From assembly GCF_965641715.1 (NCBI RefSeq), contig NZ_OZ282453.1: a stretch of DNA of 64,000 bases, one strand, 5' to 3'. How positions within the stretch are numbered: the first letter of the stretch is position 1; each line of letters starts with the position of its first letter. The DNA is from Escherichia coli (GTDB lineage Bacteria; Pseudomonadota; Gammaproteobacteria; Enterobacterales; Enterobacteriaceae). Below, piece by piece: positions 3,206 to 63,549 of this stretch. The position numbers were made by a program, and so were the translations under genes. The notes beneath the pieces were generated by a model. It worked only from the letters and a program-made list of their open reading frames with translations, had not been told where the DNA came from and ran no database searches.

Positions 3206-4246
3206 ATGAAATCAGTGGTGAATGATACTGATGGTATCGTGCGCGTTGCAGAAAGCGTCATTCCTGAAATTAAACATCAGGATGAGGTGCGGGTAAAAAT
3301 TGCCAGCTCGGGCTTATGTGGTTCCGATTTACCCAGGATATTTAAAAATGGTGCACATTATTATCCAATAACGTTAGGCCATGAATTTAGCGGCTATATT
3401 GATGCGGTAGGATCCGGTGTTGATGATTTACACCCTGGCGATGCGGTTGCCTGTGTGCCGTTATTACCCTGTTTTACTTGTCCAGAGTGTCTGAAAGGGT
3501 TTTATTCCCAGTGCGCAAAATATGATTTTATTGGCTCACGGCGTGATGGTGGATTTGCCGAATATATTGTCGTTAAGCGAAACAATGTCTTTGCACTACC
3601 TGCGGATATGCCTATTGAGGATGGGGCTTTTATTGAACCGATTACCGTTGGCCTGCATGCTTTTCATTTAGCGCAAGGTTGTGAGAATAAAAACGTTATT
3701 ATTATTGGTGCCGGAACCATTGGCCTGCTGGCCATTCAGTGCGCTGTCGCGCTGGGAGCAAAGAGTGTGACGGCGATCGACATTAGCTCAGAAAAACTGG
3801 CACTGGCAAAATCTTTCGGTGCGATGCAAACATTTAACAGTAGCGAAATGAGCGCGCCGCAAATGCAGGGCGTTTTACGCGAGCTGCGCTTTAATCAGCT
3901 TATCCTCGAGACGGCTGGCGTACCGCAAACTGTGGAACTGGCGGTAGAGATTGCCGGTCCTCATGCCCAACTGGCGCTGGTGGGGACGTTGCATCAGGAT
4001 CTGCATTTAACATCGGCAACGTTTGGCAAAATATTGCGTAAAGAGCTGACGGTTATCGGCAGTTGGATGAACTACTCCAGCCCTTGGCCTGGGCAGGAGT
4101 GGGAAACGGCGAGCCGGTTGCTGACAGAACGTAAGTTAAGCCTGGAGCCATTAATCGCTCACCGTGGAAGCTTTGAATGCTTCGCCCAGGCGGTGCGTGA
4201 CATCGCTCGTAATGCTATGCCGGGCAAAGTGTTGCTCATTCCCTGA
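3206..4246 (+). CDS. gatD: Galactitol-1-phosphate 5-dehydrogenase (Zn-dependent MDR family)
   Basis: 346-aa ORF with zinc-ADH Cys/His pattern and GxGxxG Rossmann motif. Confidence 0.9.
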   Translation: MKSVVNDTDGIVRVAESVIPEIKHQDEVRVKIASSGLCGSDLPRIFKNGAHYYPITLGHEFSGYIDAVGSGVDDLHPGDAVACVPLLPCFTCPECLKGFYSQCAKYDFIGSRRDGGFAEYIVVKRNNVFALPADMPIEDGAFIEPITVGLHAFHLAQGCENKNVIIIGAGTIGLLAIQCAVALGAKSVTAIDISSEKLALAKSFGAMQTFNSSEMSAPQMQGVLRELRFNQLILETAGVPQTVELAVEIAGPHAQLALVGTLHQDLHLTSATFGKILRKELTVIGSWMNYSSPWPGQEWETASRLLTERKLSLEPLIAHRGSFECFAQAVRDIARNAMPGKVLLIP

Positions 4247-48520: not shown

Positions 48521-51500
48521 TTACGCCTCCTCTTCATGGCGAGCAAAGCGACTTTTGGTCCACAATGCCAGGCGGTCGAATAGCAGATAAATCACCGGCG
48601 TGGTAAACAGAGTCAGCACCTGGCTGACAACCAGACCACCGACCATACCAATGCCTAACGGACGACGCAGTTCTGCGCCGACCCCGGTACTTAACATCAG
48701 CGGTAGCGCGCCGAGCAGTGCCGCCAGAGTGGTCATCAGGATCGGACGAAAACGCAGCAGACAAGCCTGATAGATGGCATCGCGCGGCGACATGCCTTGC
48801 TCGCGTTCGGCAGCCAGCGCGAAGTCGATCATCATGATGGCGTTCTTCTTCACAATACCGATCAACAAAATAATGCCGATAATCGCGATCACATCCAGTT
48901 CGCTACCGGCAATCAGTAACGCCAGTAGTGCGCCGACCCCTGCCGTGGGCAACGTCGAGAGAATGGTGATCGGATGAATAAAGCTTTCGTACAGAATACC
49001 CAGCACGATATACATCGCCACTACTGCCGCGACAATCAGCCAGACAGTACTGCCCAGCGCCGACTGGAAGGCGAGGGTGCTGCCCTGGAATTGTGTGGTG
49101 ATATCCACTGGCAGATTCAGCGTTTTTTCGGTATCCATAATCGCCTGCACCGCATCGCCCAGCGAATAGTTATCCGGCACGTTAAAGGAGATGGTCGTTA
49201 CCGGGAACTGATCCAGATGGTTGATGGAAAGCGGCGCAAAACGCTGCTCAACTTTGGCAATTGAGCTTAACGGCACCACGCCGCCATCGCTGCTGGTAAG
49301 GCGAATGGTATCCAGCGCCGCAAGCCCTGGGGTATTTTCGGTGTTGTGCTCCAGCACCACGCGATACTGGTTGGCCTGAGTATAAATGGTGGAAATCAGC
49401 CGCTGACCAAACGCGTTGTACAGGGCGTTATCGACGTCCGCCATGCTGATCCCCAGACGGCTGGCGCTGTCGCGATCAACATTGACATACGCCACCAGCC
49501 CTTTGTCCTGCCAGTCGCTGGAGACATCAGATAGCTGTGGCAGCTGCTGGAGTTTTTCCATCAACTGTGGCACCCAGGTACTGAGCGCATCCAGTGACGT
49601 GGCCTGCAAGGTAAACTGGTACTGGGTGCGGCTGACCTGAGTATCGATGGTCAGGTCCTGCGTTGGTTGCAGGAAGAGATCGACGCCCGGCACTTTATCC
49701 ACCGCCGTTTGCAGACGGGCGATGACTTTTTGCACCCGATCATCACGTTCATCCAGCGGTTTGAGGTTGATCTGTAAACGCGCACTGTTCAGCGACGGGT
49801 TAGTGCCATCAACGCCAACAAATGAGGTCAGACTTTGCACTGCCGGATCCTGCAAAATCACGTCCGCGACCTGGCGTTGCCGCTGGGCCATATTGGTAAA
49901 GGAGCTGGATTGCGGTGCCTGCAAAGTGCCCTGAATAATGCCGTTGTCCTGTACCGGGAAGAAACCTTTCGGAATGAACACCCACAATAGAACGCTAAGC
50001 AGCAGCGTGCTGAGCGCCACGCTTAAGGTCAGCCACGGATGATTCAGCACTTTCGCCAGTCCACGTCCATAGGCGGCGATTATCCTGTCGAACATTTTCT
50101 CCGAGGCACGGGAGAAGCGGTTCTGTTTACGCAGCGACTCCTGGCTGAGCATCCGCGCGCACATCATCGGTGTCAGGGTCAGCGACACCACCGCTGAGAT
50201 CAAAATCGCTACCGCCAGGGTAATAGCAAATTCGCGGAACAGTCGCCCGACGATATCGCCCATAAACAGCAGTGGGATCAACACCGCAATCAGTGAGAAG
50301 GTCAGCGAGATAATGGTAAAGCCGATTTCACCTGCGCCCTTGAGCGCCGCCGCCAACGGTTTTTCGCCTTTTTCGATATAGCGGGAAATATTTTCGATCA
50401 CCACGATGGCGTCATCGACCACGAACCCGGTGGCGATAGTTAACGCCATCAGCGTCAGGTTATTGATTGAAAAATCGAGAAACACCATAACCGCAAAAGT
50501 GCCGATTAACGACAGCGGCACGGCAACACCGGGAATGATGGTCGCCGGAATATTGCGCAAAAACAGGTAGATAATCATGACTACCAGCGCGATAGCCATC
50601 ATCAGCTCAAACTGGGTATCGTCGACGGATGCGCGGATATTGGTGGTACGGTCAGAAAGTACCGTCACCTTCACCGATTTCGGCAGACTCTCGGTGAGCT
50701 GCGGCAGCATCTGCCGGATGCTGTCGGCGGTGGAGATAATGTTAGCACCGGGCTGGCGCTGAACATTCATCACAATGGCCTGTTCTTTATTCGCCCATGC
50801 GCCGAGCCAGCTGTTTTCTGCACCTTGCTCTACGGTTGCGACATCGCCCAGACGAATCGGCGCGCCGTTCTGGTAGGCGATAATCAACTGGCGATATTCT
50901 TCCGCAGATTGCATTTGGTCATTCGCGGAAAGCGTAACCGCGCGGGAAGGGCCGTCGAGGCTACCTTTTGCAGAGTTAACGTTAGCGCCGGTAATGGCGG
51001 TGCGCACGGTTTCGCTGGTCAGGCCGAGGGCGGCAATCGCCTGAGCGTTAAGTTTGACGCGAACAGCCGGACGCTGCCCGCCGGAAAGCGTCACCAGGCC
51101 GACGCCGGAAATCTGCGAGATTTTCTGCGCGACGCGGGTTTCCACCATATCTTCCACTTGCGTCATCGGCATGGCTGTTGAGGTGACGGCGAGCGTCATG
51201 ATCGGCGGATCTGCCGGGTTCACTTTGCTGTAAACCGGCGGGTTAGGCAGATCGCTCGGCAACAAGTTGGTCGCAGCGTTAATCGCGGCCTGCACTTCCT
51301 GCTCGGCGACATCGAGCGGTAATGTTAGCTGGAACTGCAAAGTGATAACTGACGCACCGCCGGAACTTTGCGACGACATCTGTTTCAGGCCAGACATCTG
51401 CCCGAACTGGCGTTCGAGCGGCGCGGTAACGGCAGAGGTTATGACATCCGGGCTCGCACCTGGGTAGAGCGTGACCACCTGAATGGTCGGATAGTCCACT

Positions 51501-51643
51501 TCCGGCAGCGCCGAAACGGGCAGGGCGCGATAACCGATAATCCCGGCGAGTAAGATCGCCACCATCAACAGCGTGGTGGCGACAGGACGCATAATAAACA
51601 GGCGCGACGGGCCGCCTGTGCTGCTCGGGGGTAACACCTGCAT
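48521..51643 (-). CDS. mdtB: RND multidrug efflux transporter MdtB
   Basis: 1040 aa RND permease, position. Confidence 0.9.
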
Positions 51644-52890
51644 CAGGAGCGAGCTCCTTTTTTCGCGTATTCGCGGCTGGTGGCTTTCTCTTCCGGAGTG
51701 GTGGCGCTCTGGGCTTCCACCACTTCCACTTTCGCCCCTTCGGTCAGGCGATCAATGCCGTCTGTCACCACGCGATCGCCCGCAGAAATACCTGCGCGGA
51801 TCACCACTTTCTGACTGTCCTGAATGCCCGGCGTCACCAGATGTTTGCTGACCTTGTTTTCGCTATTCAGCACCCAGACAAAATGGCCTTCATTGCCCAT
51901 TTGCAGGGCGGCGGTGGGGATCACTACGGCGTTTTGTTCGGTGTCGACTAACATGCGCGCGTTAACAAACTGATTGGGAAACAGCGCATCATCCTGATTA
52001 TTAAAGCGTGCTTTCACTTTAATCGTACCGGTAGTGGCATCGATTTGGTTATCGAGACTTAACAGCGTGCCTTCACTTAATTTCTTCGAGTTGGTGCGAT
52101 CCCAGGCTTCTACCACCAGCGGTTTTCCGGCTTTTTGCGCCTGCACAACGGTAGCGATATCGCTTTCCGGCAGGGTAAAGAGCAAATCGATAGGATGCGT
52201 CTGGGTGATCACCACAATTCCGGTGGTATCACCACTGGAGATTTGGTTACCAACATCAACCTGCTTGAGACCAACGCGACCATCGACTGGTGCGGTGATG
52301 CGGCTCCAGTCGAGTTGCAGCTGTGCGCTGGCGACGCTTGCTTCATCAGCCTTAATGGTGCCTTCGGTTTCACTGACCAGCGCTTGTTGGGCATCCAGTT
52401 CCTGACGAGATACGAGATTGGTTTTTACCAGTTGTTGATAACGCGCCAGGTCACGGCGGGCGTTGGCAAGCGTGGCTTTATCTTTTGCCAGTTGGCCCTG
52501 GGCTTGTGCTAATGCAACTTTGAACTGGCTGGGGTCAATTTCTGCCAGTAAATCGCCTGCTTTGACCTGCTGGCCTTCCTGGAAATGTAACGCCATCAAC
52601 TGACCATCTACGCGGCTGCGCACCGTAACGGTGTTAGCAGCGGTAATGGTGCCAAGCCCGGTGAGGTAACGCGGAACTGCCTGTTCTACGGCGGTCGCCG
52701 CCTGAACCGGGGCTAATGGGCCGGAACGCATACCACGGCGACCACCCGCTGGCGATTGCTGCGCTTGTTTCGTCGCCCCTGGGGCTGCACTCTGGGAGTC
52801 ATTGCGGCCTTGCCAGAACCAGAATGCGGCGATGGCGGCGATAACCACCACGATTACGATTACCCAACGGGATTTATAACTACCTTTCAT
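51643..52890 (-). CDS. mdtA: Membrane fusion protein MdtA (415 aa)
   Basis: Start at MKGSYKSRW with TM anchor; upstream extension of the listed ORF rejected. Confidence 0.85.
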
Positions 52891-53120
52891 CGTTAAGAGT
52901 TTCTCTTCCTGAAACGTTTCGCGGAATGATACTAGTGTAGCCAGCCAATAAGGGAGAAAAATGGAGGAATTATGAAACACTATCGGGAATCGTCTGAATG
53001 GCGGGCACATTTGCGAGCACGCATCCAGTAATAACACAGGAAACTATTTTATCTACGCGTTAGCGATAGACTGCTTGCATGGCGAAAGGAGGTAAGCCGA
53101 CGATTTCAGCGGGACGCTGA

Positions 53121-53265
53121 AACGGGAAAGCCCCTCCCGAGGAAGGGGCCATAAATAAGGAAAGGGTCATGATGAAGATACTCATCATCGTGGTGCTCTT
53201 AGTGATTAGCTACCCAGCATACTAAGACTACCAGGGCGGGGGAACCCCCGCTCTACCCTCACTCC
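53121..53265 (-). ncRNA. Sib-family antisense sRNA antitoxin (copy 1), approximate ends
   Basis: Antisense to ibs copy 1; minus-strand hairpin ggcccctt..gaggggc + U-tract to the left of ibs start; ends estimated. Confidence 0.4.
53169..53225 (+). CDS. Ibs-family type I toxin peptide, variant MMKILIIVVLLVISYPAY
   Basis: 18-codon hydrophobic ORF with Ibs pattern. Confidence 0.6.
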   Translation: MMKILIIVVLLVISYPAY

Positions 53266-53448
53266 TGAAAGTATGCCTTCACGTTCAGAATGTCAATCCG
53301 CAGGCTTTGCAGTCTGCGATCCTGCCAGCAAATATTCTTTGCGAGACGTTACGCAATAATCACACTTGAAACTATTTTATCCGCAAGTCAGCGATAGACT
53401 GCATACAGGGCGAAAGGAGGTAAGCCGAAGATTTCAGCGGGACGCTGA

Positions 53449-53593
53449 AACGGGAAAGCCCCTCCCGAGGAAGGGGCCTTAAATAAGGAAAGGGTCATGA
53501 TGAAGTGGATCATCATCGTGGTGCTCTTAGTTATTAGCTTGCCGGCTTACTAAGTCATCAAAGCGGGGGAAACCCCGCTCTACCCTCACTCCT
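53449..53593 (-). ncRNA. Sib-family antisense sRNA antitoxin (copy 2), approximate ends
   Basis: As copy 1, by repeat register. Confidence 0.4.
53497..53553 (+). CDS. Ibs-family type I toxin peptide, variant MMKWIIIVVLLVISLPAY
   Basis: 18-codon hydrophobic ORF with Ibs pattern. Confidence 0.6.
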   Translation: MMKWIIIVVLLVISLPAY

Positions 53594-53775
53594 GAAAGTA
53601 TGCCTTCACGGTCAGATTGTCAATCCGCAGGCTTTGCAGTCTGCGATCCTGCCAGCAAATATTCTTTGCGAGGCGTTACGCAATAATCACACTTGAAACT
53701 ATTTTATCCGCAAGTCAGCGATAGACTGCATACAGGGCGAAAGGAGGTAAGCCGAAGATTTCAGCGGGACGCTGA

Positions 53776-53920
53776 AACGGGAAAGCCCCTCCCGAGGAAG
53801 GGGCCTTAAATAAGGAAAGGGTCATGATGAAGCTACTCATCATCGTGGTGCTCTTAGTCATAAGCTTCCCCGCTTACTAAGACTACCAGGGCGGGGGAAC
53901 CCCCGCTCTACCCTCATTCC
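53776..53920 (-). ncRNA. sibB: SibB-like antisense sRNA, approximate ends
   Basis: Antisense to ibsB; by repeat register. Confidence 0.4.
53824..53880 (+). CDS. ibsB: IbsB toxin peptide MMKLLIIVVLLVISFPAY
   Basis: Matches remembered IbsB. Confidence 0.7.
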   Translation: MMKLLIIVVLLVISFPAY

Positions 53921-54103
53921 TGAAAGTATGCCTTCACGGTCAGATTGTCAATCTGCAGGCTTTGCAGTCTGCGATCCTGCCAGCAAATATTCTTTGCGAG
54001 ACGTTACGCAATAATCACACTGGAAACTATTTTATCCGCAAGTCAGCGATAGACTGCATGCATGGCGAAAGGAGGTAAGCCGACGATTTCAGCGGGATGC
54101 TGA

Positions 54104-54251
54104 AACGGGAAAGCCCCTCCCGAGGAAGGGGCCTTAAATAAGGAAAGGGTTATGATGAAGCACGTCATCATACTGGTGATACTCTTAGTGATTAGCTTCC
54201 AGGCTTACTAAGAACACCAGGGGGAGGGGGAAACCTCTCCTAACCCTCACT
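54104..54251 (-). ncRNA. sibA: SibA-like antisense sRNA, approximate ends
   Basis: Antisense to ibsA; by repeat register. Confidence 0.4.
54152..54211 (+). CDS. ibsA: IbsA toxin peptide MMKHVIILVILLVISFQAY
   Basis: Matches remembered IbsA. Confidence 0.7.
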   Translation: MMKHVIILVILLVISFQAY

Positions 54252-54430
54252 TCTGAAATTATGTCACTCCGCCCTTAGTGTCAATCGACGGCTCTCCGTT
54301 CTTGCGAGGCGAATAGCAAAATTTTCTGCGCCGCCGGGCCTAATTCTGAAAGTTTCTTCGTTTGCTCTTATTTCATTATTGCAATCGGTATGATACCGGA
54401 CCTCAATAATTCTCTAAGAAAGGATTTCTT

Positions 54431-55090
54431 ATGAGCGAACAAATCACGTTTGCCACCAGCGATTTTGCCAGTAACCCGGAACCACGTTGCCCCTGCATTC
54501 TGCTGCTGGATGTATCTGGCTCGATGAGCGGCAGACCTATTAATGAACTTAACGCCGGATTGGTTACCTTTCGTGATGAACTGCTTGCTGATCCGCTGGC
54601 TTTAAAAAGAGTGGAACTCGGCATTGTGACGTTCGGCCCGGTGCATGTGGAACAACCCTTTACCAGCGCCGCTAACTTTTTCCCGCCCATCCTGTTTGCC
54701 CAGGGGGATACGCCTATGGGGGCCGCCATTACCAAAGCCCTGGATATGGTTGAAGAGAGGAAACGTGAGTACCGCGCAAATGGTATTTCGTATTATCGCC
54801 CGTGGATTTTCCTGATCACCGATGGCGCTCCAACCGATGAGTGGCAGGCTGCCGCCAACAAAGTGTTTCAGGGGGAAGAAGATAAGAAGTTTGCCTTCTT
54901 TTCCATCGGTGTTCAGGGGGCGGATATGAAGACTCTGGCACAAATCAGCGTTCGTCAGCCTTTGCCACTGCAGGGATTACAATTCCGTGAACTGTTTAGC
55001 TGGTTATCCAGTTCGCTGCGTTCGGTTTCCCGCTCCACGCCGGGAACGGAAGTTGTGCTGGAAGCGCCAAAAGGCTGGACGTCAGTGTGA
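54431..55090 (+). CDS. yegL: vWA-domain protein YegL
   Basis: 219 aa with MIDAS-like DVSGSMSG motif. Confidence 0.85.
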
Positions 55091-55848
55091 GCTGGCGTCT
55101 GGTTTATGCATCCGCTGTTGGAACGTTGCACATTAGCGCTGATTTACCTTGTCAGGATGCCTGCCAGATGCAGGTTGCTTGGCTAAATGACCAGCAGCCA
55201 TTACTGGTGATGTTCCTTGCTGATGGCGCAGGTAGCGTTTCGCAGGGAGGAGAAGGCGCGAAGCTCGCCGTCAATGAAGCGATGGCGTTTATGGTGCAAA
55301 AAGTACAGGACGGTGAATTGGGGCTTAATGATGTTCTCGCCACAAATATGGTACTGACCATTCGTCAACGACTTTTTGCCGAGGCAGAAGCCAAAGCATT
55401 AGCAGTTCGCGATTTTGCCTGCACGTTTCTGGGATTGATTTCATCGGATAACGGCACATTGATTATGCAAATTGGCGACGGCGGTGTAGTGGTGGATTTG
55501 GGTCGTGGTCTGGAACTGCCGCTCACGCCGATGGTGGGTGAATATGCCAATATGACGCATTTCATTAGCGATGAAGATGCTGTTTCCAGACTGGAAACTT
55601 TCACCAGCACTGAGCGTGCGCATAAAGTTGCAGCATTTACGGATGGTATTCAGCGACTGGCGTTAAATATGCTGGATAATTCTCCTCATGTGCCTTTCTT
55701 TACCCCGTTTTTCAATGGACTGGCGTCAGCAACGCAGGAACAACTCGATTTATTACCTGAATTGTTAAAGCAGTTTTTGTCCAGCCCGGCGGTAAACGAG
55801 CGTACCGATGATGATAAAACGTTGGCACTGGCGCTGTGGTTACCATGA
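55087..55848 (+). CDS. yegK: PP2C-like Ser/Thr phosphatase YegK
   Basis: 253 aa, acidic metal-binding motifs ([12 protein letters not shown]), coupled to yegL and yegI. Confidence 0.8.
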
Positions 55849-57785
55849 AACCCACTTTATATACTGCTACTGGTGAGTGCGTTACGCCAGGCCGTGAACT
55901 GGGCAAAGGCGGTGAAGGTGCGGTTTATGATATCGAGGAGTTTGCCGATAGCGTCGCCAAGATTTATCACACGCCGCCACCCGCCTTAAAACAGGACAAA
56001 CTTGCCTTTATGGCTGCGACAGCTGACGCGCAGTTGTTGAATTATGTCGCCTGGCCGCAGGCAACGCTTCACGGTGGACGAGGCGGAAAAGTTATCGGTT
56101 TTATGATGCCAAAAGTTTCTGGTAAAGAACCGATTCATATGATCTATAGCCCGGCACATCGTCGCCAGAGTTACCCTCATTGTGCGTGGGATTTTCTACT
56201 CTATGTTGCGCGCAATATTGCTTCATCTTTTGCTACGGTTCACGAGCACGGGCACGTCGTGGGTGACGTAAACCAGAACAGCTTTATGGTAGGTCGCGAC
56301 AGCAAAGTGGTGTTGATCGATAGTGACTCCTTTCAGATTAACGCCAATGGCACACTGCATTTATGCGAAGTCGGCGTGTCGCATTTTACGCCGCCAGAGC
56401 TACAAACCTTGCCATCATTTGTCGGTTTTGAACGTACCGCGAATCACGATAATTTTGGCCTTGCGTTGCTGATTTTTCACGTCTTGTTTGGTGGGCGGCA
56501 TCCTTATTCTGGTGTGCCGCTTATCTCTGATGCGGGTAATGCGCTGGAGACGGATATTGCCCATTTCCGTTATGCCTACGCGTCAGATAATCAGCGACGT
56601 GGTTTAAAACCGCCGCCACGATCTATTCCGCTGTCGATGTTACCGGGAGATGTTGAAGCCATGTTTCAGCAGGCATTCACGGAAAGTGGCGTGGCAACGG
56701 GGCGTCCGACGGCAAAAGCGTGGGTAGCGGCACTTGATTTACTACGCCAACAGTTAAAGAAATGTACCGTTTCGGCAATGCATGTTTACCCCGGTCATTT
56801 GACTGACTGCCCGTGGTGTGCGCTGGATAATCAAGGCGTTATCTATTTTATTGATCTCGGCGAAGAGGTCATTACCACCAGCGGTGATTTTGTGCTGACG
56901 AAAGTCTGGGCGATGGTGATGGCGTCAGTAGCACCGCCAGCATTGCAATTGCCATTACCCGATCATTTCCAACCGACTGGCAGGCCGCTTCCTTTAGGCC
57001 TGTTACGGCGCGAATACATCATTCTGATTGAGATCGCACTGTCAGCGTTATCGCTGTTGCTTTGCGGCCTTCAGGCAGAACCGCGTTATATTATTTTGGT
57101 TCCTGTGCTGGCGGCTATCTGGATTATTGGCAGTCTGACAAGCAAAGCTTATAAAGCAGAAATCCAGCAACGCCGTGAGGCATTTAATCGCGCGAAAATG
57201 GACTATGACCATTTAGTCAGCCAGATCCAACAGTTGGGCGGGCTGGAAGGTTTTATCGCCAAACGGACGATGCTCGAAAAAATGAAGGAAGAAATTCTCG
57301 GGTTACCGGAAGAAGAAAAACGTGCTCTGGCAGCACTTCACGACACTGCAAGGGAACGGCAGAAGCAGAAGTTTCTGGAGGGATTTTTTATTGATGCTGC
57401 CTCTATTCCCGGCGTTGGTCCTGCGCGTAAAGCGGCGTTACGGTCTTTTGGTATTGAAACAGCAGCGGATGTTACCCGTCGTGGCGTTAAGCAAGTTAAA
57501 GGGTTTGGCGACCATCTGACCCAGGCGGTTATCGACTGGAAAGCGAGCTGTGAACGCCGTTTTGTGTTCAGGCCGAACGAAGCGGTAACGCCAGCAGACA
57601 GACAGGCGGTAATGGCGAAAATGGCCGCCAAACGACATCGGCTGGAATCGGCGTTGACTGTCGGCGCGACAGAGTTGCAGCGATTCCGCCTTCATGCTCC
57701 AGCACGGACCATGCCGTTGATGGAACCGTTACGTCAGGCGGCAGAAAAACTGGCTCAGGCGCAGGCAGATTTAAGCCGCTGCTGA
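55845..57785 (+). CDS. yegI: Eukaryote-like Ser/Thr protein kinase YegI with C-terminal TM and coiled-coil/HhH-like region
   Basis: Kinase motifs GKGGEGAVY, HVVGDVNQNS, DSDSF; ATG overlaps yegK stop (ATGA). Confidence 0.85.
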   Translation: MKPTLYTATGECVTPGRELGKGGEGAVYDIEEFADSVAKIYHTPPPALKQDKLAFMAATADAQLLNYVAWPQATLHGGRGGKVIGFMMPKVSGKEPIHMIYSPAHRRQSYPHCAWDFLLYVARNIASSFATVHEHGHVVGDVNQNSFMVGRDSKVVLIDSDSFQINANGTLHLCEVGVSHFTPPELQTLPSFVGFERTANHDNFGLALLIFHVLFGGRHPYSGVPLISDAGNALETDIAHFRYAYASDNQRRGLKPPPRSIPLSMLPGDVEAMFQQAFTESGVATGRPTAKAWVAALDLLRQQLKKCTVSAMHVYPGHLTDCPWCALDNQGVIYFIDLGEEVITTSGDFVLTKVWAMVMASVAPPALQLPLPDHFQPTGRPLPLGLLRREYIILIEIALSALSLLLCGLQAEPRYIILVPVLAAIWIIGSLTSKAYKAEIQQRREAFNRAKMDYDHLVSQIQQLGGLEGFIAKRTMLEKMKEEILGLPEEEKRALAALHDTARERQKQKFLEGFFIDAASIPGVGPARKAALRSFGIETAADVTRRGVKQVKGFGDHLTQAVIDWKASCERRFVFRPNEAVTPADRQAVMAKMAAKRHRLESALTVGATELQRFRLHAPARTMPLMEPLRQAAEKLAQAQADLSRC

Positions 57786-57796
57786 GCCATTTTCTT

Positions 57797-59149
57797 TTAA
57801 CGAAATACCACTTCCGCCCAGCGTGCCAGCCCGGCGGTGACGGAGCCAAAGTCATCGCCGCCTGCAATCGGAATGCCCGGCAACTGTTCTGCCAGCGCTT
57901 TTTTAATCAGCGGCGAACGGGCGCTACCGCCGGTCAGGTATATAACGTCCGGTTTTTCCTGGGCGTTATCCAGCGCCAGTTGCACCTGTTCCAGAATCCG
58001 CGCCAGTGGCTGGCTGAGGGCGCTTTCCAGCCCTTGCTGGCTAATCAGCGTAGCCAGTTCATCGCTGATAAACGGCAGTGAGGCGCGGGTTTCCGCTACG
58101 CTTGAAAGAGCGATTTTGCTCTCTTCTGCGCTGCGTACCAGGCGATAGCTTAAACGCTGACGCCAGACTTTCTGTAGCAGGGCCACTTTTTCCGGTTCGC
58201 GGGCATCGCGTACCAGATCGTTAAGCAGACGACCGTTGGCACTACTGTAGAAATCACTCTGCGCAGGTACGTCGTTGATGGCAACCGCATTCCACCACGG
58301 CAGAATCGGCAGGGCGATGCCTTTTTCGGTTTCGCCACCCATGCCCAGTAACGGCATCAGGTTTTTAAACGCCAGCGCGATATCCAGATCGTTACCGCCA
58401 ATACGGCAACCACTGTGACCCAGCAGGCTGGCTTCACGATCGAGACGCGAACGCCACTGCGGCCCCATCAGCAGCAATGAACAGTCAGTCGTACCACCGC
58501 CGATATCCACCACCAGCACCCGTTTTTCTTCCTGCAAGGTGGCTTCGTAATCCAGCCCAGCCGCGACCGGCTCGTACTGGAATACCACGTCCCTGAATCC
58601 GGCACGCTTCGCCGCGCGTTCCAGAATCCCTTGCGCCTGGGCGTTTGCTTCATCGCCGCCCAGCCCCTGGAAGTTGATCGGGCGACCAATCACCGCCTGA
58701 GTAATCGTTTCTGGCAGCTGTGCCTGCGCCTGCTGGCGAATGTGCAACATCATTGCGCAGACCAGATCCTCAAACAGCGCTACCTGCTGCGGTTTTAAGC
58801 CGCTGGCACCGAGGAACGATTTTGGTGATTTCACAAACCACACTTCTTCCGGATCATCAATGTACTGTGCCAGTGAGGAAAGACCGAACTGCACGCTTTT
58901 CGCCGTAACATCGATATCTTCTTCGCGGTTATAACGAATCGCCCGACGCAACAGCGCCTGCGTTTCATCGTCGTCTGCCGGAACATCATGATGGCGGTAC
59001 AGCCATTCGCTTACCGCTTCACGCGTTGGCGCGCAAAGCATTGAAGGCAGCAGCGTGCTGTCGTTTTCCATTTTTAGCAAGTGCGGTTTACCGTCACGCA
59101 TGACCGCCACTGAACAGTTTGCTGTACCGTAATCAAAACCAATAAACAC
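57797..59149 (-). CDS. yegD: Hsp70/actin-fold ATPase YegD (450 aa, GTG start)
   Basis: Start set to GTG giving (M)FIGFDYGTANCSVAV; Hsp70-like phosphate-binding motifs. Confidence 0.8.
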   Translation of the reverse strand: MFIGFDYGTANCSVAVMRDGKPHLLKMENDSTLLPSMLCAPTREAVSEWLYRHHDVPADDDETQALLRRAIRYNREEDIDVTAKSVQFGLSSLAQYIDDPEEVWFVKSPKSFLGASGLKPQQVALFEDLVCAMMLHIRQQAQAQLPETITQAVIGRPINFQGLGGDEANAQAQGILERAAKRAGFRDVVFQYEPVAAGLDYEATLQEEKRVLVVDIGGGTTDCSLLLMGPQWRSRLDREASLLGHSGCRIGGNDLDIALAFKNLMPLLGMGGETEKGIALPILPWWNAVAINDVPAQSDFYSSANGRLLNDLVRDAREPEKVALLQKVWRQRLSYRLVRSAEESKIALSSVAETRASLPFISDELATLISQQGLESALSQPLARILEQVQLALDNAQEKPDVIYLTGGSARSPLIKKALAEQLPGIPIAGGDDFGSVTAGLARWAEVVFR

Positions 59150-59282
59150 GAAATAATCCCCATGCCGGTGAAGAAGGGGCGTGACTTTAGCGAAATGTTG
59201 CCGTCGCGACAACCGGAATATGAAAGCAAAGCGCAGCGTCTGAATAACGTTTATGCTGAAAGCGGATGAATAAGGAGATGCG

Positions 59283-60131
59283 ATGTATACCCTGAACTGG
59301 CAGCCGCCGTATGACTGGTCGTGGATGTTGGGATTTCTCGCCGCCCGTGCAGTGAGCGGTGTGGAAACGGTCGCGGACAGTTATTATGCCCGTAGTCTGG
59401 CGGTGGGCGAATATCGCGGCGTGGTGACTGCTATTCCGGATATAGCCCGCCATACTCTGCACATAAATTTAAGTGCAGGTTTAGAACCTGTTGCCGCAGA
59501 GTGTCTGGCGAAAATGAGCCGCCTGTTTGATCTGCAATGTAACCCGCAGATTGTTAACGGTGCGTTGGGCAGGTTAGGCGCGGCGCGGCCCGGATTGCGT
59601 TTACCCGGCTGTGTTGATGCTTTTGAGCAGGGCGTGCGGGCGATTTTAGGCCAACTGGTGAGCGTGGCGATGGCGGCAAAATTGACTGCCAAAGTGGTAC
59701 AACTTTATGGCGAACGGCTGGATGATTTTCCGGAGTATATCTGCTTCCCCACGCCTCAGCGGCTGGCAGCAGCCGACCCGCAGGCATTAAAAGCGTTAGG
59801 CATGCCGTTGAAACGGGCAGAGGCGCTGATTCATCTGGCAAATGCGGCGCTGGAGGGCACCTTACCAATGACAATACCGGGCGACGTAGAACAAGCGATG
59901 AAAACGCTGCAAACTTTTCCGGGTATCGGGCGCTGGACGGCGAATTATTTCGCTTTACGTGGCTGGCAGGCGAAAGATGTTTTCCTGCCGGATGATTATC
60001 TGATTAAACAGCGATTTCCGGGAATGACACCGGCGCAAATCCGCCGTTATGCCGAGCGCTGGAAGCCCTGGCGTTCTTATGCGCTGTTGCATATCTGGTA
60101 TACGGAAGGCTGGCAGCCAGACGAAGCATGA
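59283..60131 (+). CDS. alkA: 3-methyladenine DNA glycosylase II
   Basis: 282-aa ORF with HhH-GPD region (FPGIGRWTANYFALRG); synteny. Confidence 0.9.
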   Translation: MYTLNWQPPYDWSWMLGFLAARAVSGVETVADSYYARSLAVGEYRGVVTAIPDIARHTLHINLSAGLEPVAAECLAKMSRLFDLQCNPQIVNGALGRLGAARPGLRLPGCVDAFEQGVRAILGQLVSVAMAAKLTAKVVQLYGERLDDFPEYICFPTPQRLAAADPQALKALGMPLKRAEALIHLANAALEGTLPMTIPGDVEQAMKTLQTFPGIGRWTANYFALRGWQAKDVFLPDDYLIKQRFPGMTPAQIRRYAERWKPWRSYALLHIWYTEGWQPDEA

Positions 60132-60231
60132 CGTTGGTCGCCGGAAGCGGTGCGAGCGCCTTGCGGAATGAGCGATTTGTAGGCCTGATAAGACGCGTTA
60201 GCGTCGCATCAGGCAATGGGCAAACGCTCCC

Positions 60232-63200
60232 TCAGTTAATCGCGAAATAACTACTATTCACCAGCAAATCCAGCGGTTGGGCATCGGCAATCACATTACC
60301 ATAAATCAGATCGACGCCGATGCCAGAAAGCGTATCCATCACTAAGGGTAAAACGACTGGCCCGGCGATGGTTTTCATCCCGAGTCGCTGAGCGTGCCCC
60401 TGAATAATCGTAATCAGCATCTCATCCATCAAATTACCCTGCACGTTGGCGCATAACTCATCATCGAGTAGCAGGTAATCTGCCATATTCGCTTTCAGCG
60501 AGTTGAAGATTTGCAGATCGCGGCCCACCTGACTGAATATGATCCGACATCCCCCCAGCCGCAGTTTTTGCACGCTTTCTGCGTGATCTAAAATCGCTTC
60601 AGCCGGAATAATCAGATGTAATAACCGTGGTGGTAGAGGGCTATTTTCCAGCTGCTCAAGCAGGTCATTCACCAGCATGGCGCTACTCAAACCGGCAACG
60701 GAAAGGGGGAGGGCGATGCTTATGCCTTTACTGGCAACCGCTTTTGCGGCCTGCTGGAAAAATTCGTGGAATACCCGGCGGTCAAGAGCATGGCTAAGCG
60801 CCGGATCGCTGAAGCTACGACGAAATGTTTGTTCATCAATAATCTCGCCTTCGCAACTCCAGAGCTTAAGTGAAATCAGCCACAAATTACGCGCTTCCGG
60901 GATCCGTGGCGAAGCGACACCGTGGGCGAGCATCATCAACTGATTCTCTTTAATCATACGCCACTGTTCATCAAGCGACATCGCCGCCCGTTCGCTATGT
61001 GCGGCAGCTTGCTGCGGTTCGTAAACCGTCACCCGGCCCCGGCCACCATTTTTGGAGGCATAACAGGCGATATCAGCCTGCGACATCACTTCTGCCGCCT
61101 GATGATTGTTGTCATCGATCAAGGTAATCCCGGCGCTGGCACCTACCCGATGTACCCGGCCTTCCCATATAAAGTGATAGTCATTCACAGCACTGATAAT
61201 ACGTGTAGCGATAAAACGAGCGCTTTCAACATTGCAGTCTGGCAGCAGCAGACCAAATTCATCACCGCCGAGCCGCGCCAGCACGTCACTGGAGCGCAGC
61301 ATACTCAGCATCAACGACGCCAGTTCGCGCAGCAAAGCGTCGCCCGCCGCATGCCCGGCGCTGTCATTCACCGCTTTAAAGCGATCAAGATCGATAAACA
61401 CCAGTGCATGTCGCTGATGCGTACTGTTTACCGTTTGCAGCAGGATACGCAGTTGTTTCTCAAAACTGGCGCGGTTGGCGAGATGCGTCAGTGCATCATG
61501 GGAGGCGCTGTAGCTCAGCTGGCGCAGCATTTTGCGTGATTCGGTGACGTCCTGAATCACCAGAACCGAGCCTATATTGCTGCCGTCCAGAGTACTTAAC
61601 GGCGTAATACTGTAATGCACGTCGTAGCTGCCGCCGCTCCGGCAGTGCAATACCACATCTTGTTCAATCGCGGAACGTGAGGTGTCGGCACTGTAAATGT
61701 TCTCCATTAATGGTCCGTTGTCGCCAAAAGTAATATGCAACACCGTCAGGAGCGGAACACCTAATGCTTCTTCCTGCGTCCAGCCGCTCATCTTCTCCGC
61801 CACTGGATTCATAAAGGTAATTTTCATCGCCATATCAATACAGACCACGGCTTCACCGATGGAATCAAGCGTAATGTGCAGGCGCTCTTTTTCCTGAAAC
61901 AATGCCTCGTTAAGCTGTTTAACCTCGGTCATATCCATATTAATGCCGAGCAGACGTTCGACTTCGCCTTCTTTATTCAGTACCCGGTTGGCGAGGGCGC
62001 GGATATGGCGGATGCCATCTTTCACGGCAATGCGAAATTCCAGCTTAAAGGGCGAGCGCGATTGCAATGAATCGCGAATCACTTTTTCGGCGTGTTGCCG
62101 ATCTTCCGGCAGCACGCACTCGTACCACACCTGCCAGTTCGGTTTGATATGCGGAGGAATTTCATACAGCTCGAACATCCGCTTATCCCAGCTAAAAATA
62201 TTCGGCTTCAGCTCCCACTCCCAGATGCCAATCCCGCCCGCTTCGTTAGCCAGCGTGATGCGCTCCATCAGTTGCTGATTGACCTGTTCGGTGCGTTTTA
62301 GCTCGTTAATGTCTTCAATCTGAGCGATAAAATAGAGCGGCGTGCCATCCGTGTGGCGCACCAGAGAGACGGCAAGCAACGCCCAGACAACATCGCCATT
62401 GCGGTTGTAGTAACGTTTTTCCATTGAATAGGTGTTTATTTCACCGCTTATCAGCTTTTCAACCTGTTGGAGATCTTTATTGAGATCCTCCGGCCAGGTC
62501 AGTTGCTGAAAGGTGAGTCCGCGCAGCTCTTCCTGACTGTAACCGAGAAACTGGCAGAGTGCTTTGTTGGATTGCAGCCATTGTCCCTCGGTGCCCACTA
62601 ACGCCATACCGATAGCGGAATATTCCATCGCGTTTCGAAAGCGGGTTTCGCTTTCGGAAATGTGTTTGCGTTCCGCACGAAAGGCATACATCACCATGGT
62701 CATGATGTTGGCGGGCAGCAGGATCAGCAAAAACGGTAGCCACGGCATATGGCTCATCAGGTATGTACGCGGCGTAGCAAGCAGGGAGGGATCCGCGGCC
62801 ATCATCAGCGACACCATCATCACCGTGGTAAGGAAGATCAAAAAGGCTTCCATTCGTGGCAGGCGCACGGCGCTCCACATCAACAGCACAATAATGAAAG
62901 TAAAAGGCCACGGCAGATACAGCATCGAAAGCCAGCTTAACGTCAGTGTGATGGCTAACGTGAGCAGCGACTCAAAAAGCAACCTTGGGTTGCGATGGCG
63001 CAGCAGATAGTGTGGTTTAAATAACAATCCCAGCGGCACCAATGCCAGGGCGCCGATGGATTCTGACAGTACCCATATCAAAAATGCCTTGAGAGGATCG
63101 TCTCCGGGCGTCAGCAGGACAACCAGAACACCCCCTAACAGAGGTGGAACAATGGCGCTGCCGAATGCCAGACGCAGCCAGTCAGCCAGATTTTGCAAGG

Positions 63201-63549
63201 GGTTATACCACGGCAGCAATTTACGTAGCAGCACTGCCCCGACCACGGCTTCAACAATATTGATGGTCGTCCAGGTCATGTTCAGCGAGCTGGTGGAAAA
63301 AAGCAGGATGGATGCGGCGATATTTCCCAGCGAACAGCTCAGCGCAATTCCCGGCCACATGCGCCCGGCATGGCGATAAAACGCCACCATCATGATGGAC
63401 GTCGGGAACCACAGTGGGGCGAGTTGGGTGCCAAACTGCGAAAGCTCAAGCGAGAAAAGGGTAAAGATAAACGAGACTAAACCTAAACTGACCAGGTGAA
63501 GCAGCGGGTGGGGCAGGGCAATTAATACATGCTGTGATTGTTTGCTCAT
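60232..63549 (-). CDS. dgcE: Diguanylate cyclase DgcE (YegE): MASE1 membrane domain, PAS domains, GGDEF, degenerate EAL
   Basis: 1105 aa; GGDEFG motif present; synteny udk-yegE-alkA. Confidence 0.9.
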   Translation of the reverse strand: MSKQSQHVLIALPHPLLHLVSLGLVSFIFTLFSLELSQFGTQLAPLWFPTSIMMVAFYRHAGRMWPGIALSCSLGNIAASILLFSTSSLNMTWTTINIVEAVVGAVLLRKLLPWYNPLQNLADWLRLAFGSAIVPPLLGGVLVVLLTPGDDPLKAFLIWVLSESIGALALVPLGLLFKPHYLLRHRNPRLLFESLLTLAITLTLSWLSMLYLPWPFTFIIVLLMWSAVRLPRMEAFLIFLTTVMMVSLMMAADPSLLATPRTYLMSHMPWLPFLLILLPANIMTMVMYAFRAERKHISESETRFRNAMEYSAIGMALVGTEGQWLQSNKALCQFLGYSQEELRGLTFQQLTWPEDLNKDLQQVEKLISGEINTYSMEKRYYNRNGDVVWALLAVSLVRHTDGTPLYFIAQIEDINELKRTEQVNQQLMERITLANEAGGIGIWEWELKPNIFSWDKRMFELYEIPPHIKPNWQVWYECVLPEDRQHAEKVIRDSLQSRSPFKLEFRIAVKDGIRHIRALANRVLNKEGEVERLLGINMDMTEVKQLNEALFQEKERLHITLDSIGEAVVCIDMAMKITFMNPVAEKMSGWTQEEALGVPLLTVLHITFGDNGPLMENIYSADTSRSAIEQDVVLHCRSGGSYDVHYSITPLSTLDGSNIGSVLVIQDVTESRKMLRQLSYSASHDALTHLANRASFEKQLRILLQTVNSTHQRHALVFIDLDRFKAVNDSAGHAAGDALLRELASLMLSMLRSSDVLARLGGDEFGLLLPDCNVESARFIATRIISAVNDYHFIWEGRVHRVGASAGITLIDDNNHQAAEVMSQADIACYASKNGGRGRVTVYEPQQAAAHSERAAMSLDEQWRMIKENQLMMLAHGVASPRIPEARNLWLISLKLWSCEGEIIDEQTFRRSFSDPALSHALDRRVFHEFFQQAAKAVASKGISIALPLSVAGLSSAMLVNDLLEQLENSPLPPRLLHLIIPAEAILDHAESVQKLRLGGCRIIFSQVGRDLQIFNSLKANMADYLLLDDELCANVQGNLMDEMLITIIQGHAQRLGMKTIAGPVVLPLVMDTLSGIGVDLIYGNVIADAQPLDLLVNSSYFAIN

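Follow-up and report, generated by a model that had tools for sequence, protein, structure and literature searches.

The yegL-pphC-yegI core operon of Escherichia coli, a probable three-gene Ser/Thr phospho-switch with the architecture of a TerY-P triad

What is the role of a gene module that is kept in 99.8% of E. coli strains, under purifying selection, though the literature gives neither an inducer nor a phenotype for it? The window analyzed here, a 64,000-nucleotide stretch of E. coli contig NZ_OZ282453.1, carries such a module in which yegL, yegK (also named pphC) and yegI, all on the + strand, together span exactly positions 54431-57785 of the open reading frame map. Most likely this region corresponds to the E. 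coli core operon yegL-pphC(yegK)-yegI known from earlier work, in its uninterrupted 'B-type' allele, a self-contained three-gene Ser/Thr phospho-switch with TerY-P-triad architecture. PphC is the sole PP2C phosphatase of E. coli, and YegI is one of few Hanks-type kinases there. The gene annotation, the enzyme biochemistry and the distinction between B-type and K-type architectures have all been published, and as a genome-scan finding the triad is ordinary. Its genes and the translation signal read from the sequence are arranged as follows.

54420..54424, + strand: Shine-Dalgarno-like AAGGA, 6 nt 5' of the yegL ATG
54431..55090, + strand: yegL, stand-alone vWA protein (219 aa), MIDAS motif complete
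55087..55848, + strand: yegK = pphC, PP2C-family Ser/Thr phosphatase of 253 aa, GTG start
55845..57785, + strand: yegI, membrane-anchored Ser/Thr kinase of 646 aa from its ATG

At both junctions the stop and start codons overlap by 4 nt, GTGA at 55087-55090 between yegL and pphC and ATGA at 55845-55848 between pphC and yegI. The yegI reading frame measures 649 aa from its first GTG (55836); counted from the ATG at 55845, where RefSeq places the start in the best-matching genome, it has 646 aa. In that genome the genes are named yegL/pphC/yegI, with the orthologue of the third described as 'protein kinase YegI', and the open reading frame map and RefSeq annotation together give the order mdtA-ibs-yegL-pphC-yegI-yegD-alkA-dgcE; the window locus likewise lies between mdtA/ibs-sib repeats and yegD-alkA-dgcE. 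In E. coli mdtA adjoins the triad upstream, and yegD is convergent, 12 nt downstream. The promoter scan found no consensus sigma-70 promoter 5' of yegL, and promoter and terminator scans at the locus gave results no better than shuffled expectation. Identity to the K-12 proteins is 99% for YegL, 92% for PphC and 96% for YegI. A preliminary description had read the three genes as encoding a vWA/MIDAS protein, a PP2C-like phosphatase and a eukaryote-like kinase, which the reading frames, domains and K-12 identities bear out, and had called them translationally coupled, which agrees with the type of overlap at both junctions. Its view that the function is poorly understood is shared by the published work (10.1101/303594, 10.1101/819920), and its view of a core-genome module rather than a novelty is upheld by the distribution of the locus.

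A survey of 5426 complete E. coli genomes located the triad in 5416 of them, with at least 80% coverage in 5402, and all three open reading frames are intact in 99.6% of complete genomes. A deep allelic split divides the locus within the species, and the best nucleotide identity of the window allele to any of the 5426 genomes is 98.8%. Insertion of yegJ between pphC and yegI, published for K-12-type strains (10.1101/303594, 10.1101/819920), occurs in 1934 of the 5426, while the window locus has the uninterrupted form without yegJ. Relative to K-12, dN/dS is 0.03 for yegL, 0.17 for pphC and 0.16 for yegI at dS of 0.12-0.29, values consistent with purifying selection on all three genes.

Outside E. 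coli, a vWA gene is followed by a PP2C gene and a kinase gene in the same order and on the same strand at 74 of 80 other-species loci, the remaining six being truncated contigs. Taxa carrying the triad include Firmicutes, Actinobacteria, Cyanobacteria and Methanoregula, with a phyletic spread that is patchy across phyla, and members of the family are also found on conjugative plasmids and megaplasmids; phage-borne copies were looked for and none were found. Wherever enough upstream DNA is present, the three genes form an obligate cassette across bacteria and methanogenic archaea. No fourth gene was common to more than 11 of 72 loci. We rejected yegD as a further component, as it does not stand beside the triad outside E. 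coli: among 964 neighboring open reading frames of the 72 loci, YegD occurs only at the E. coli locus, and there are two distant Hsp70-like matches (24-27% identical) at one other locus (L085). A conserved 69-aa basic protein encoded upstream, in some cases together with an SNase gene, was also set aside: only a subset of betaproteobacterial type has it, and E. coli does not. Judged by cross-phylum median identity (62%, versus 37-38% for the two enzymes), YegL is the most conserved member of the triad.

YegL matches the Pfam VWA model (E=6.4e-10) and carries the MIDAS residues D27-x-S29-x-S31, T94 and D131, which are at least 95% conserved in 76 homologues; a search of its profile against PDB sequences returned generic vWA domains only. 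A further conserved feature lies near its C terminus.

55001..55045, + strand: C-terminal Ser-rich tail of YegL (aa 191-205), with conserved S193, S195, S200 and S202

Conservation of these four serines is at least 95% among 76 homologues, and a cross-phylum alignment of 32 sequences shows no variation at any of them; the tail is a candidate phospho-acceptor region. In the screen of Xia et al. (10.1101/354589), overproduced YegL and, separately, overproduced YegI raised DNA damage; both results are hits of that screen without a mechanism.

PphC has a strong match to Pfam PP2C_2 (E=4.6e-47, 160.7 bits against a cut-off of 24) and conserves all of the metal-binding aspartates D46, D131, D186, D242 and D243, the fold and metal coordination of a PPM/PP2C phosphatase. 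Its match to the NCBIfam Stp1 model (E=8.5e-4 only) is far under the cut-off, and a PDB sequence search gave no match. Phosphatase activity of PphC has been demonstrated in vitro, where the enzyme removes phosphate from YegI (10.1101/303594).

YegI is the most elaborate of the three proteins, with the following parts.

55845..56729, + strand: kinase domain (aa 1-~295), with conserved kinase motifs, and Pkinase in homologues
56763..56819, + strand: CHCC motif C307...H313...C322-P-W-C325, just 3' of the kinase domain
57000..57152, + strand: two-pass TM hairpin (aa ~386-436), its periplasmic loop very short
57387..57560, + strand: (HhH)2-like module (aa ~515-572), with Gly hairpins GVGP 523-526 and GFG 553-555
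57612..57782, + strand: amphipathic-helix or coiled-coil-like segment (aa 590-646) with 3.5-residue periodicity

The kinase domain contains a G-loop (G20-G25), K39, catalytic D141/N143, a D159-S160-D161-S162 loop, TPPE at 182-185 and R287, residues that are invariant or at least 90% conserved across 62-78 family members, with VGD in place of HRD and DSD in place of DFG. The window YegI itself gave no match to Pfam Pkinase; two of its homologues (P0260 and P0167) score above the gathering threshold of that model. With its G-loop, VAIK lysine, catalytic Asp, Mg-binding Asp, APE-like motif (P184-E185) and subdomain XI Arg, YegI belongs to the Hanks-type Ser/Thr kinases. In vitro it is an active Mn/Mg-dependent kinase that autophosphorylates, with second-order kinetics, on S153/S160/S162 of its unusual D-S-D activation segment (10.1101/819920); the window protein retains all three serines and the DSD loop, which are conserved across the family. 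A PDB sequence search with YegI returned only a marginal match to the NleH1 kinase.

Downstream of the kinase domain, C307, H313, C322 and C325 are invariant in 62 diverse homologues and probably form a zinc-binding knuckle or ribbon. Two hydrophobic segments follow at about aa 389-411 and 413-435 (Kyte-Doolittle, peak window starts at aa 389-394 and 413-417), and all but one of 78 family members (77) have at least one such segment, similarly placed in those that were inspected. The preliminary description was right that YegI has a membrane segment; in place of the single one that it envisaged, there is a two-pass inner-membrane hairpin whose two termini are cytoplasmic, as are the kinase domain and C-terminal half (N-in/C-in, determined experimentally; 10.1101/819920). 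It had also assigned a coiled coil to the C-terminal region. That is compatible with the last ~57 residues, whose hydrophobic periodicity of 3.5 residues stands at z=4.3 against shuffles, but not for aa 437-512, where the same kind of test revealed no heptad periodicity and left a coiled coil unsupported. Between these stretches lies the best-conserved part of YegI outside the kinase, a region resembling HhH modules. The whole protein matches Pfam HHH_5 at E=3e-3 and its C-terminal half at 6e-4, with scores of 18.4-20.6 bits that fall under the gathering cut-off of 27, and 16 of 33 homologues match the same model at E<0.01, the best at 3.7e-5; a profile of the C-terminal family retrieved from the PDB the HhH of L32e at E=0.02 and Pol IV at 0.2, besides marginal matches to coiled-coil chains. 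We suggest that aa ~515-572 are probably an (HhH)2 DNA-binding module. It is this module, together with the conserved CHCC motif as a probable zinc site, that is newly described for YegI here.

How might these parts work together? The overlapping junctions would allow one transcript to yield three proteins in fixed proportion, and PphC may hold the YegI kinase inactive. In the cytoplasm, the C-terminal half of YegI, whose helical segments and probable (HhH)2 module follow the CHCC motif, could gather kinase molecules in response to a cue at the membrane, either a nucleic acid or a protein, and this gathering would lead to trans-autophosphorylation. YegL would then act as a phospho-regulated output or adaptor, with its conserved Ser-rich tail as the likely acceptor; the targets of YegI known from the literature are YegI itself and PphC, with no further substrate reported. 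The link to nucleic acids comes, on the sequence side, from the HhH profile matches of YegI, which lie below the gathering score, and other TerY-P kinases have at the corresponding position a zinc ribbon or an OB fold (PMC11090510); on the experimental side it comes from the DNA damage that overproduced YegL or YegI caused in the screen of Xia et al. As for the downstream biology, a response to foreign DNA or phage, or DNA-damage signaling, is a matter of speculation. In its boldest form the hypothesis casts yegL-pphC-yegI as a membrane-anchored, DNA-sensing TerY-P-type switch, in which the (HhH)2 arm would recognize DNA at the inner membrane, whether damaged or entering with a phage or plasmid, kinase clustering would overcome PphC, and phosphorylation of the YegL tail would lead to a protective or growth-arrest response. 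We consider this full sequence of events improbable; if true, a near-universal E. coli operon would be a chromosomally fixed immune or DNA-surveillance module missed by current defense finders.

A rival reading is that the triad is a cryptic system against phage or foreign DNA, a TerY-P variant that became fixed in the core genome of E. coli. Its membrane-tethered HhH module would sense incoming DNA and thereby activate the kinase, and phosphorylation of YegL and/or host targets would stop the infection. TerY-P systems do protect against T7-like phages (PMC7699616, PMC11090510), and a TerY-P variant missed by both PADLOC and DefenseFinder is active in P. aeruginosa (10.1101/2022.08.12.503731 / PMC10889362). 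In other genomes, certain homologous cassettes are surrounded by defense genes: SLFN-type helicase, ScoMcrA, BrxR and JetB at one locus (L003), AbiH and a KAP NTPase at another (L004), GmrSD and type I RM at a third (L005), and type I RM and Mrr at a fourth (L009). The TerY-P architecture, the patchy spread with carriage on conjugative plasmids and megaplasmids, the deep allelic split and the kinship of the YegI kinase core to the PD-T4-6 defense kinase, its nearest PADLOC relative, all favor the same reading. However, YegL reaches only E=0.013 (13.1 bits) against PADLOC TerY, which one of 32 homologues matches (E=0.005), and STK_OB is not matched by the window YegI and is matched by just one of 62 homologues (E=7.6e-4), so that membership of the validated TerY-P defense system is rejected at the level of these models. 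Defense genes make up a handful of the 149 nearest neighbors in 44 independent contexts, a sample without a matched control, and a general association with defense islands is unsupported; the association is occasional. The likeness to defense-linked modules proposed in the preliminary description survives for the architecture, and not for the PADLOC models or for adjacency elsewhere. A near-universal operon at a fixed core position beside efflux and repair genes is, moreover, atypical of defense systems, and the literature reports no phage phenotype for yegLKI. Nor do the best matches of a Pseudomonas family member, among which no P. aeruginosa homologue appears, link the P. aeruginosa variant to this family. 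A cryptic defense system is possible but unlikely in our estimation, and any defense or DNA-sensing role of the triad is speculative.

The neighborhood in E. coli invites another explanation, signaling of envelope or efflux stress together with the adjacent mdtABCD-baeSR or Hsp70-like YegD, in keeping with the flanking mdtA and yegD, the inner-membrane location of YegI (10.1101/819920) and the induction of yegD by yegJ overexpression (PMC13232886). Outside Escherichia, however, the triad is accompanied by neither mdt genes nor a YegD orthologue, YegI lacks an extracytoplasmic sensor domain because its hairpin loop is only a few residues long, and its conserved accessory modules are cytoplasmic and putatively of nucleic-acid-binding type; we regard such a role as very improbable. 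At the other extreme, the operon might be a silenced evolutionary relic without current function in E. coli. Its expression is undetectable or very low under standard laboratory conditions (10.1101/303594, 10.1101/819920, PMC13232886), the yegJ insertion is tolerated in K-12-type strains, and recurrent yegI mutations in experimental evolution are cited in the Dworkin paper. Yet the near-universal integrity of the reading frames, dN/dS of 0.03-0.17 despite substantial dS, the retention of all catalytic and MIDAS residues and the activity of purified PphC and YegI (10.1101/303594, 10.1101/819920) count against a relic, which we also regard as very improbable. The preferred reading, a published core phospho-switch of TerY-P-type architecture, narrows by this class placement the experiments needed to assign a function, and offers three handles for such work: the probable HhH module and the CHCC motif of YegI, and the conserved Ser-rich tail of YegL.

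The closest known counterparts are the orthologues at the same chromosomal position in E. coli REL606 and MG1655 (Rajagopalan & Dworkin; 10.1101/303594, 10.1101/819920; later J Bacteriol 2018, FEBS Lett 2020). The 'B-type' locus of REL606 has the same 4-nt pphC/yegI overlap and the same 646-aa YegI as the window. The window carries a different allele from these counterparts and is without the yegJ insertion of K-12-type strains. More broadly, the window triad appears to be of TerY-P type by its architecture, an intact-MIDAS vWA with adjoining PP2C and kinase in one unit conserved across taxa. As reviewed in PMC11090510 and PMC4978471, the TerY-P triad (Anantharaman, Iyer & Aravind 2012) also combines a stand-alone TerY-like vWA, a PP2C and a Ser/Thr kinase, the kinase there carrying a small C-terminal module, and is mobile, patchy and at times located inside restriction or DNA-processing islands. 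The window type is not linked to ter genes, McrBC/CoCoNuT or WXG100/FtsK genes, and differs further in a kinase with a two-pass hairpin, a probable (HhH)2 module and helical segments beyond the CHCC motif. The TerY-P anti-phage system (Gao et al. 2020; PADLOC TerY, STK_OB) comprises the same three enzymatic and domain classes, with an OB fold where YegI has a TM and HhH-like C terminus. Likeness to the single-gene kinase PD-T4-6, whose PADLOC model is matched by 57 of 62 YegI family members (best E=4.7e-11; window YegI E=2.1e-4 over aa 114-238), does not reach beyond the catalytic core; PD-T4-6 has neither vWA or PP2C partners nor a TM/HhH region. Finally, PknB/PstP, PrkC/PrpC and Stk1/Stp1 share with the window triad a membrane-anchored kinase co-encoded with a PP2C that acts on the kinase activation segment, whereas YegI differs from those kinases in having no extracellular PASTA-type sensor and in its VGD and DSD motifs, and the triad adds an obligate vWA partner and a probable cytoplasmic HhH module.

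The triad is an already known and annotated module. Its three open reading frames are co-directional and lie exactly where the preliminary description had placed them:

54431-55090, + strand: yegL, open reading frame of 219 aa
55087-55848, + strand: pphC (yegK), open reading frame of 253 aa with a GTG start
55836/55845-57785, + strand: yegI, open reading frame of 649 aa from the first GTG or 646 aa from the ATG

The gene names are those of RefSeq in the best-matching E. coli records, and the 646-aa ATG is the yegI start chosen by RefSeq in the best-matching genome. A Shine-Dalgarno-like AAGGA stands 6 nt ahead of the yegL ATG, and the sequence reads GTGA at the yegL/pphC junction and ATGA at the pphC/yegI junction, each a 4-nt overlap of the upstream stop with the downstream start. 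The neighbours are mdtB/mdtA on the upstream side and yegD, alkA and dgcE on the downstream side. Because the triad is present in 5416 of 5426 complete E. coli genomes (5402 at ≥80% coverage), the earlier statement that it belongs to the core genome is correct; that it is a known module of poorly understood physiological role was likewise borne out, the genes being annotated and the biochemistry of YegI and PphC published. The original observation is confirmed and its interpretation supported.

Compared with a K-12 derivative, protein identity is 99% for YegL, 92% for PphC and 96% for YegI; Rajagopalan and Dworkin (10.1101/303594) had also reported the 92% figure for PphC and a difference between B and K strains. 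Synonymous divergence from K-12 is 0.20 for yegL, 0.29 for pphC and 0.12 for yegI, 2-5 times that of the adjacent yegD (0.057; 57797-59149), and the 90-95% identity band holds 1058 genomes (~20%) for the triad vs 279 (5%) for mdtB and 4 (0.1%) for dgcE. With dN/dS against K-12 at 0.03 (yegL), 0.17 (pphC) and 0.16 (yegI), the genes are functional and under purifying selection, yet with a deep allelic split. K-12-type genomes further carry an extra gene of opposite orientation, yegJ (153 aa), inserted precisely at the pphC/yegI junction (window 55845-55848 against 3343-4067 of the K-12-derivative locus L002). This segment is found in 1934 of the 5426 genomes and is absent from the window, where the pphC/yegI arrangement is uninterrupted; the insertion is the derived state, since pphC and yegI are contiguous in every non-Escherichia locus.

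Against the 5426 genomes, mdtB reaches at best 97.6% nucleotide identity, the triad 98.8% and dgcE 99.3% (48521-63549), and YegI has no match above 98% in a database of 5.8 billion proteins; the window's E. coli lineage is poorly represented among these complete genomes. Between mdtA and yegL lie four tandem Ibs/Sib type I toxin-antitoxin units (53029-54263; 328-bp unit, 91% match), with four SIB_RNA matches on the - strand (127-142 bits). The same site holds two copies in the K-12 derivative and four in strain TB06052.

Starts at 53170, 53498, 53825 and 54152, + strand: Ibs open reading frames of 18-19 codons, each opposite a SIB_RNA match

Outside E. coli the triad is widespread. Searched with the non-kinase half of YegI (representative clusters at 50% identity, E≤1e-3), the database returned 2231 clusters, mostly of ~645 aa and alike in layout, and when each species was scanned through a single genome, at least 497 genomes had a relative, among them Beta- and Gammaproteobacteria, Desulfobacterota, Planctomycetes, Acidobacteria, Actinobacteria, Firmicutes and Cyanobacteria and the archaeal Methanoregula and Methanomicrobiales. 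Relatives are also carried by plasmids, both conjugative ones and megaplasmids (pQBR103 is an example); no phage-borne relatives were found. The triad is a self-contained, horizontally mobile cassette: the vWA, PP2C and kinase genes follow one another in this order, on one strand, in all 74 loci with enough upstream DNA (80 retrieved), no additional gene family is common to more than 11 of 72 loci, and a YegD orthologue stands beside the triad in E. coli only.

Large Pseudomonas plasmids (records H44-H47; pQBR103, NC_009444.1, 176087-178012) encode full-length YegI-family kinases of 41-42% identity, and others reside on replicons of Rhizobium, Sinorhizobium, Deinococcus and Cupriavidus. Of 52 matching plasmids, 22 are predicted to be conjugative. 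Several betaproteobacterial-type loci have a very basic, highly conserved protein (83-87% identity from locus to locus) just upstream of the triad, separated from the vWA gene in L003 and L010 by a gene with an SNase domain. The E. coli window lacks such a protein.

L003 5719-5928; L009 6075-6284; L010/L011 5700-5912, upstream of the triad: basic protein of 69-70 aa

YegI is an active Mn/Mg-dependent kinase in which VGD replaces HRD and DSD replaces DFG; it autophosphorylates at S153, S160 and S162 with second-order kinetics, and spans the inner membrane twice, leaving both termini in the cytoplasm (10.1101/819920). PphC, an atypical PP2C phosphatase, is active and dephosphorylates YegI (10.1101/303594). 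Pfam recognizes YegL (VWA, E=6.4e-10) and PphC (PP2C_2, E=4.6e-47), and in YegI HHH_5 alone, sub-threshold; homologues within the YegI family do exceed the Pkinase gathering score, and the kinase signature (G-loop G20-G25, K39, D141, D159-S-D161-S162, TPPE, R287) is invariant in 62-78 diverse homologues. Four residues that directly follow the kinase domain (C307, H313, C322, C325) do not vary among 62 homologues of 32-63% identity, which suggests a small zinc-binding element. Two adjacent hydrophobic segments (aa ~389-411 and ~413-435) with a very short loop between them agree with the topology already published, and there is no room for an extracytoplasmic sensor.

The best-conserved part beyond the kinase, aa ~515-572, contains two Gly hairpins (GVGP and GFG) and is probably an (HhH)2 module. 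HHH_5 is matched by 16 of 33 homologous C-terminal halves (best E=3.7e-5), a family profile run against the PDB reaches HhH regions in two proteins, ribosomal protein L32e (E=0.02) and DNA polymerase IV (E=0.2), and several databases label homologues 'helix-hairpin-helix domain-containing protein'; since every score falls below curated cut-offs, the module is held as probable, not proven. The C-terminal coiled coil of the preliminary description is borne out only in part: 3.5-residue hydrophobic periodicity is significant in the last ~57 residues (z=4.3) and is not seen by the same test in aa 437-512. A few relatives among the 2231 clusters add C-terminal TPR or SH3 extensions; with TPR arrays or SH3 domains of bacterial type, the homologues P0160, P0170, P0179, P0181, P0183, P0167 and P0260 reach 780-1006 aa. 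This suggests that the C-terminus varies and serves in interaction or sensing.

Of the three proteins YegL is much the best conserved (median identity 62% vs 37-38% for the two enzymes), which speaks for a place at the functional core of the triad and not as an accessory. Its MIDAS motif is complete, and ≥95% of 76 homologues keep the tail serines S193, S195, S200 and S202. Overproduced separately in a screen, YegL and YegI were each among the proteins increasing endogenous DNA damage (10.1101/354589).

We propose that the three proteins would be made from a single transcript by coupled translation, with PphC keeping YegI in an off state, and that YegI may be switched on when its C-terminal half clusters or dimerises in the cytoplasm, perhaps on nucleic acid via the predicted HhH module. 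YegL would then be the phospho-regulated output, via its Ser-rich tail and/or MIDAS site. Two other explanations score lower. Envelope signalling with Mdt/Bae or YegD would accord with the neighbouring genes and the membrane location of YegI; set against it are the restriction of the YegD neighbour to E. coli and the tight hairpin. A silenced relic would accord with yegI/pphC expression that is undetected or very weak under laboratory conditions (10.1101/303594, 10.1101/819920, PMC13232886), and is opposed by the low dN/dS.

TerY-P is a class described as a mobile phosphorylation switch tied to DNA-processing and restriction systems (PMC11090510, PMC4978471); its versions with a kinase-OB fusion are a stand-alone defence against T7-like phages (PMC7699616). 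The preliminary description had likened the triad to defence-linked modules, and at the level of architecture this stands, since the triad is of the TerY-P kind: its vWA protein is TerY-like, its phosphatase is a PP2C, and its Ser/Thr kinase bears a small module at the C terminus. In sequence the resemblance to the PADLOC models is slight. Against TerY, a model reached by 1 of 32 YegL homologues, YegL itself reaches only E=0.013, STK_OB is reached by 1 of 62 kinases, and the kinase core is nearer to the PD-T4-6 kinases; membership of the validated defence family was rejected on the TerY and STK_OB matches. Of the first six contexts outside Escherichia, four or five contain clear defence genes, but in a wider sample from 44 independent contexts such genes are few: the 149 nearest neighbours include a single Wadjet JetA/JetB, a single cytosine methylase, two integrases and three DUF4236 proteins. 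DUF4236 proteins recur by triads, in 3 of these 149 and at L010, and a ~685-aa P-loop ATPase with a putative resemblance to OLD-family nucleases lies directly upstream of the vWA gene in Pseudomonas alcaligenes (L029 6128-8185) and in two Burkholderiaceae, Paraburkholderia (L062) and Caballeronia (L063). A defence role is thus unlikely, and the speculative upside left is modest; a TerY-P variant missed by PADLOC and DefenseFinder did prove active in P. aeruginosa (10.1101/2022.08.12.503731, PMC10889362). Because model matches are weak and genomic context is mixed, we describe the triad as one that, by its architecture, probably works like a TerY-P triad, and not as a member of the validated family.
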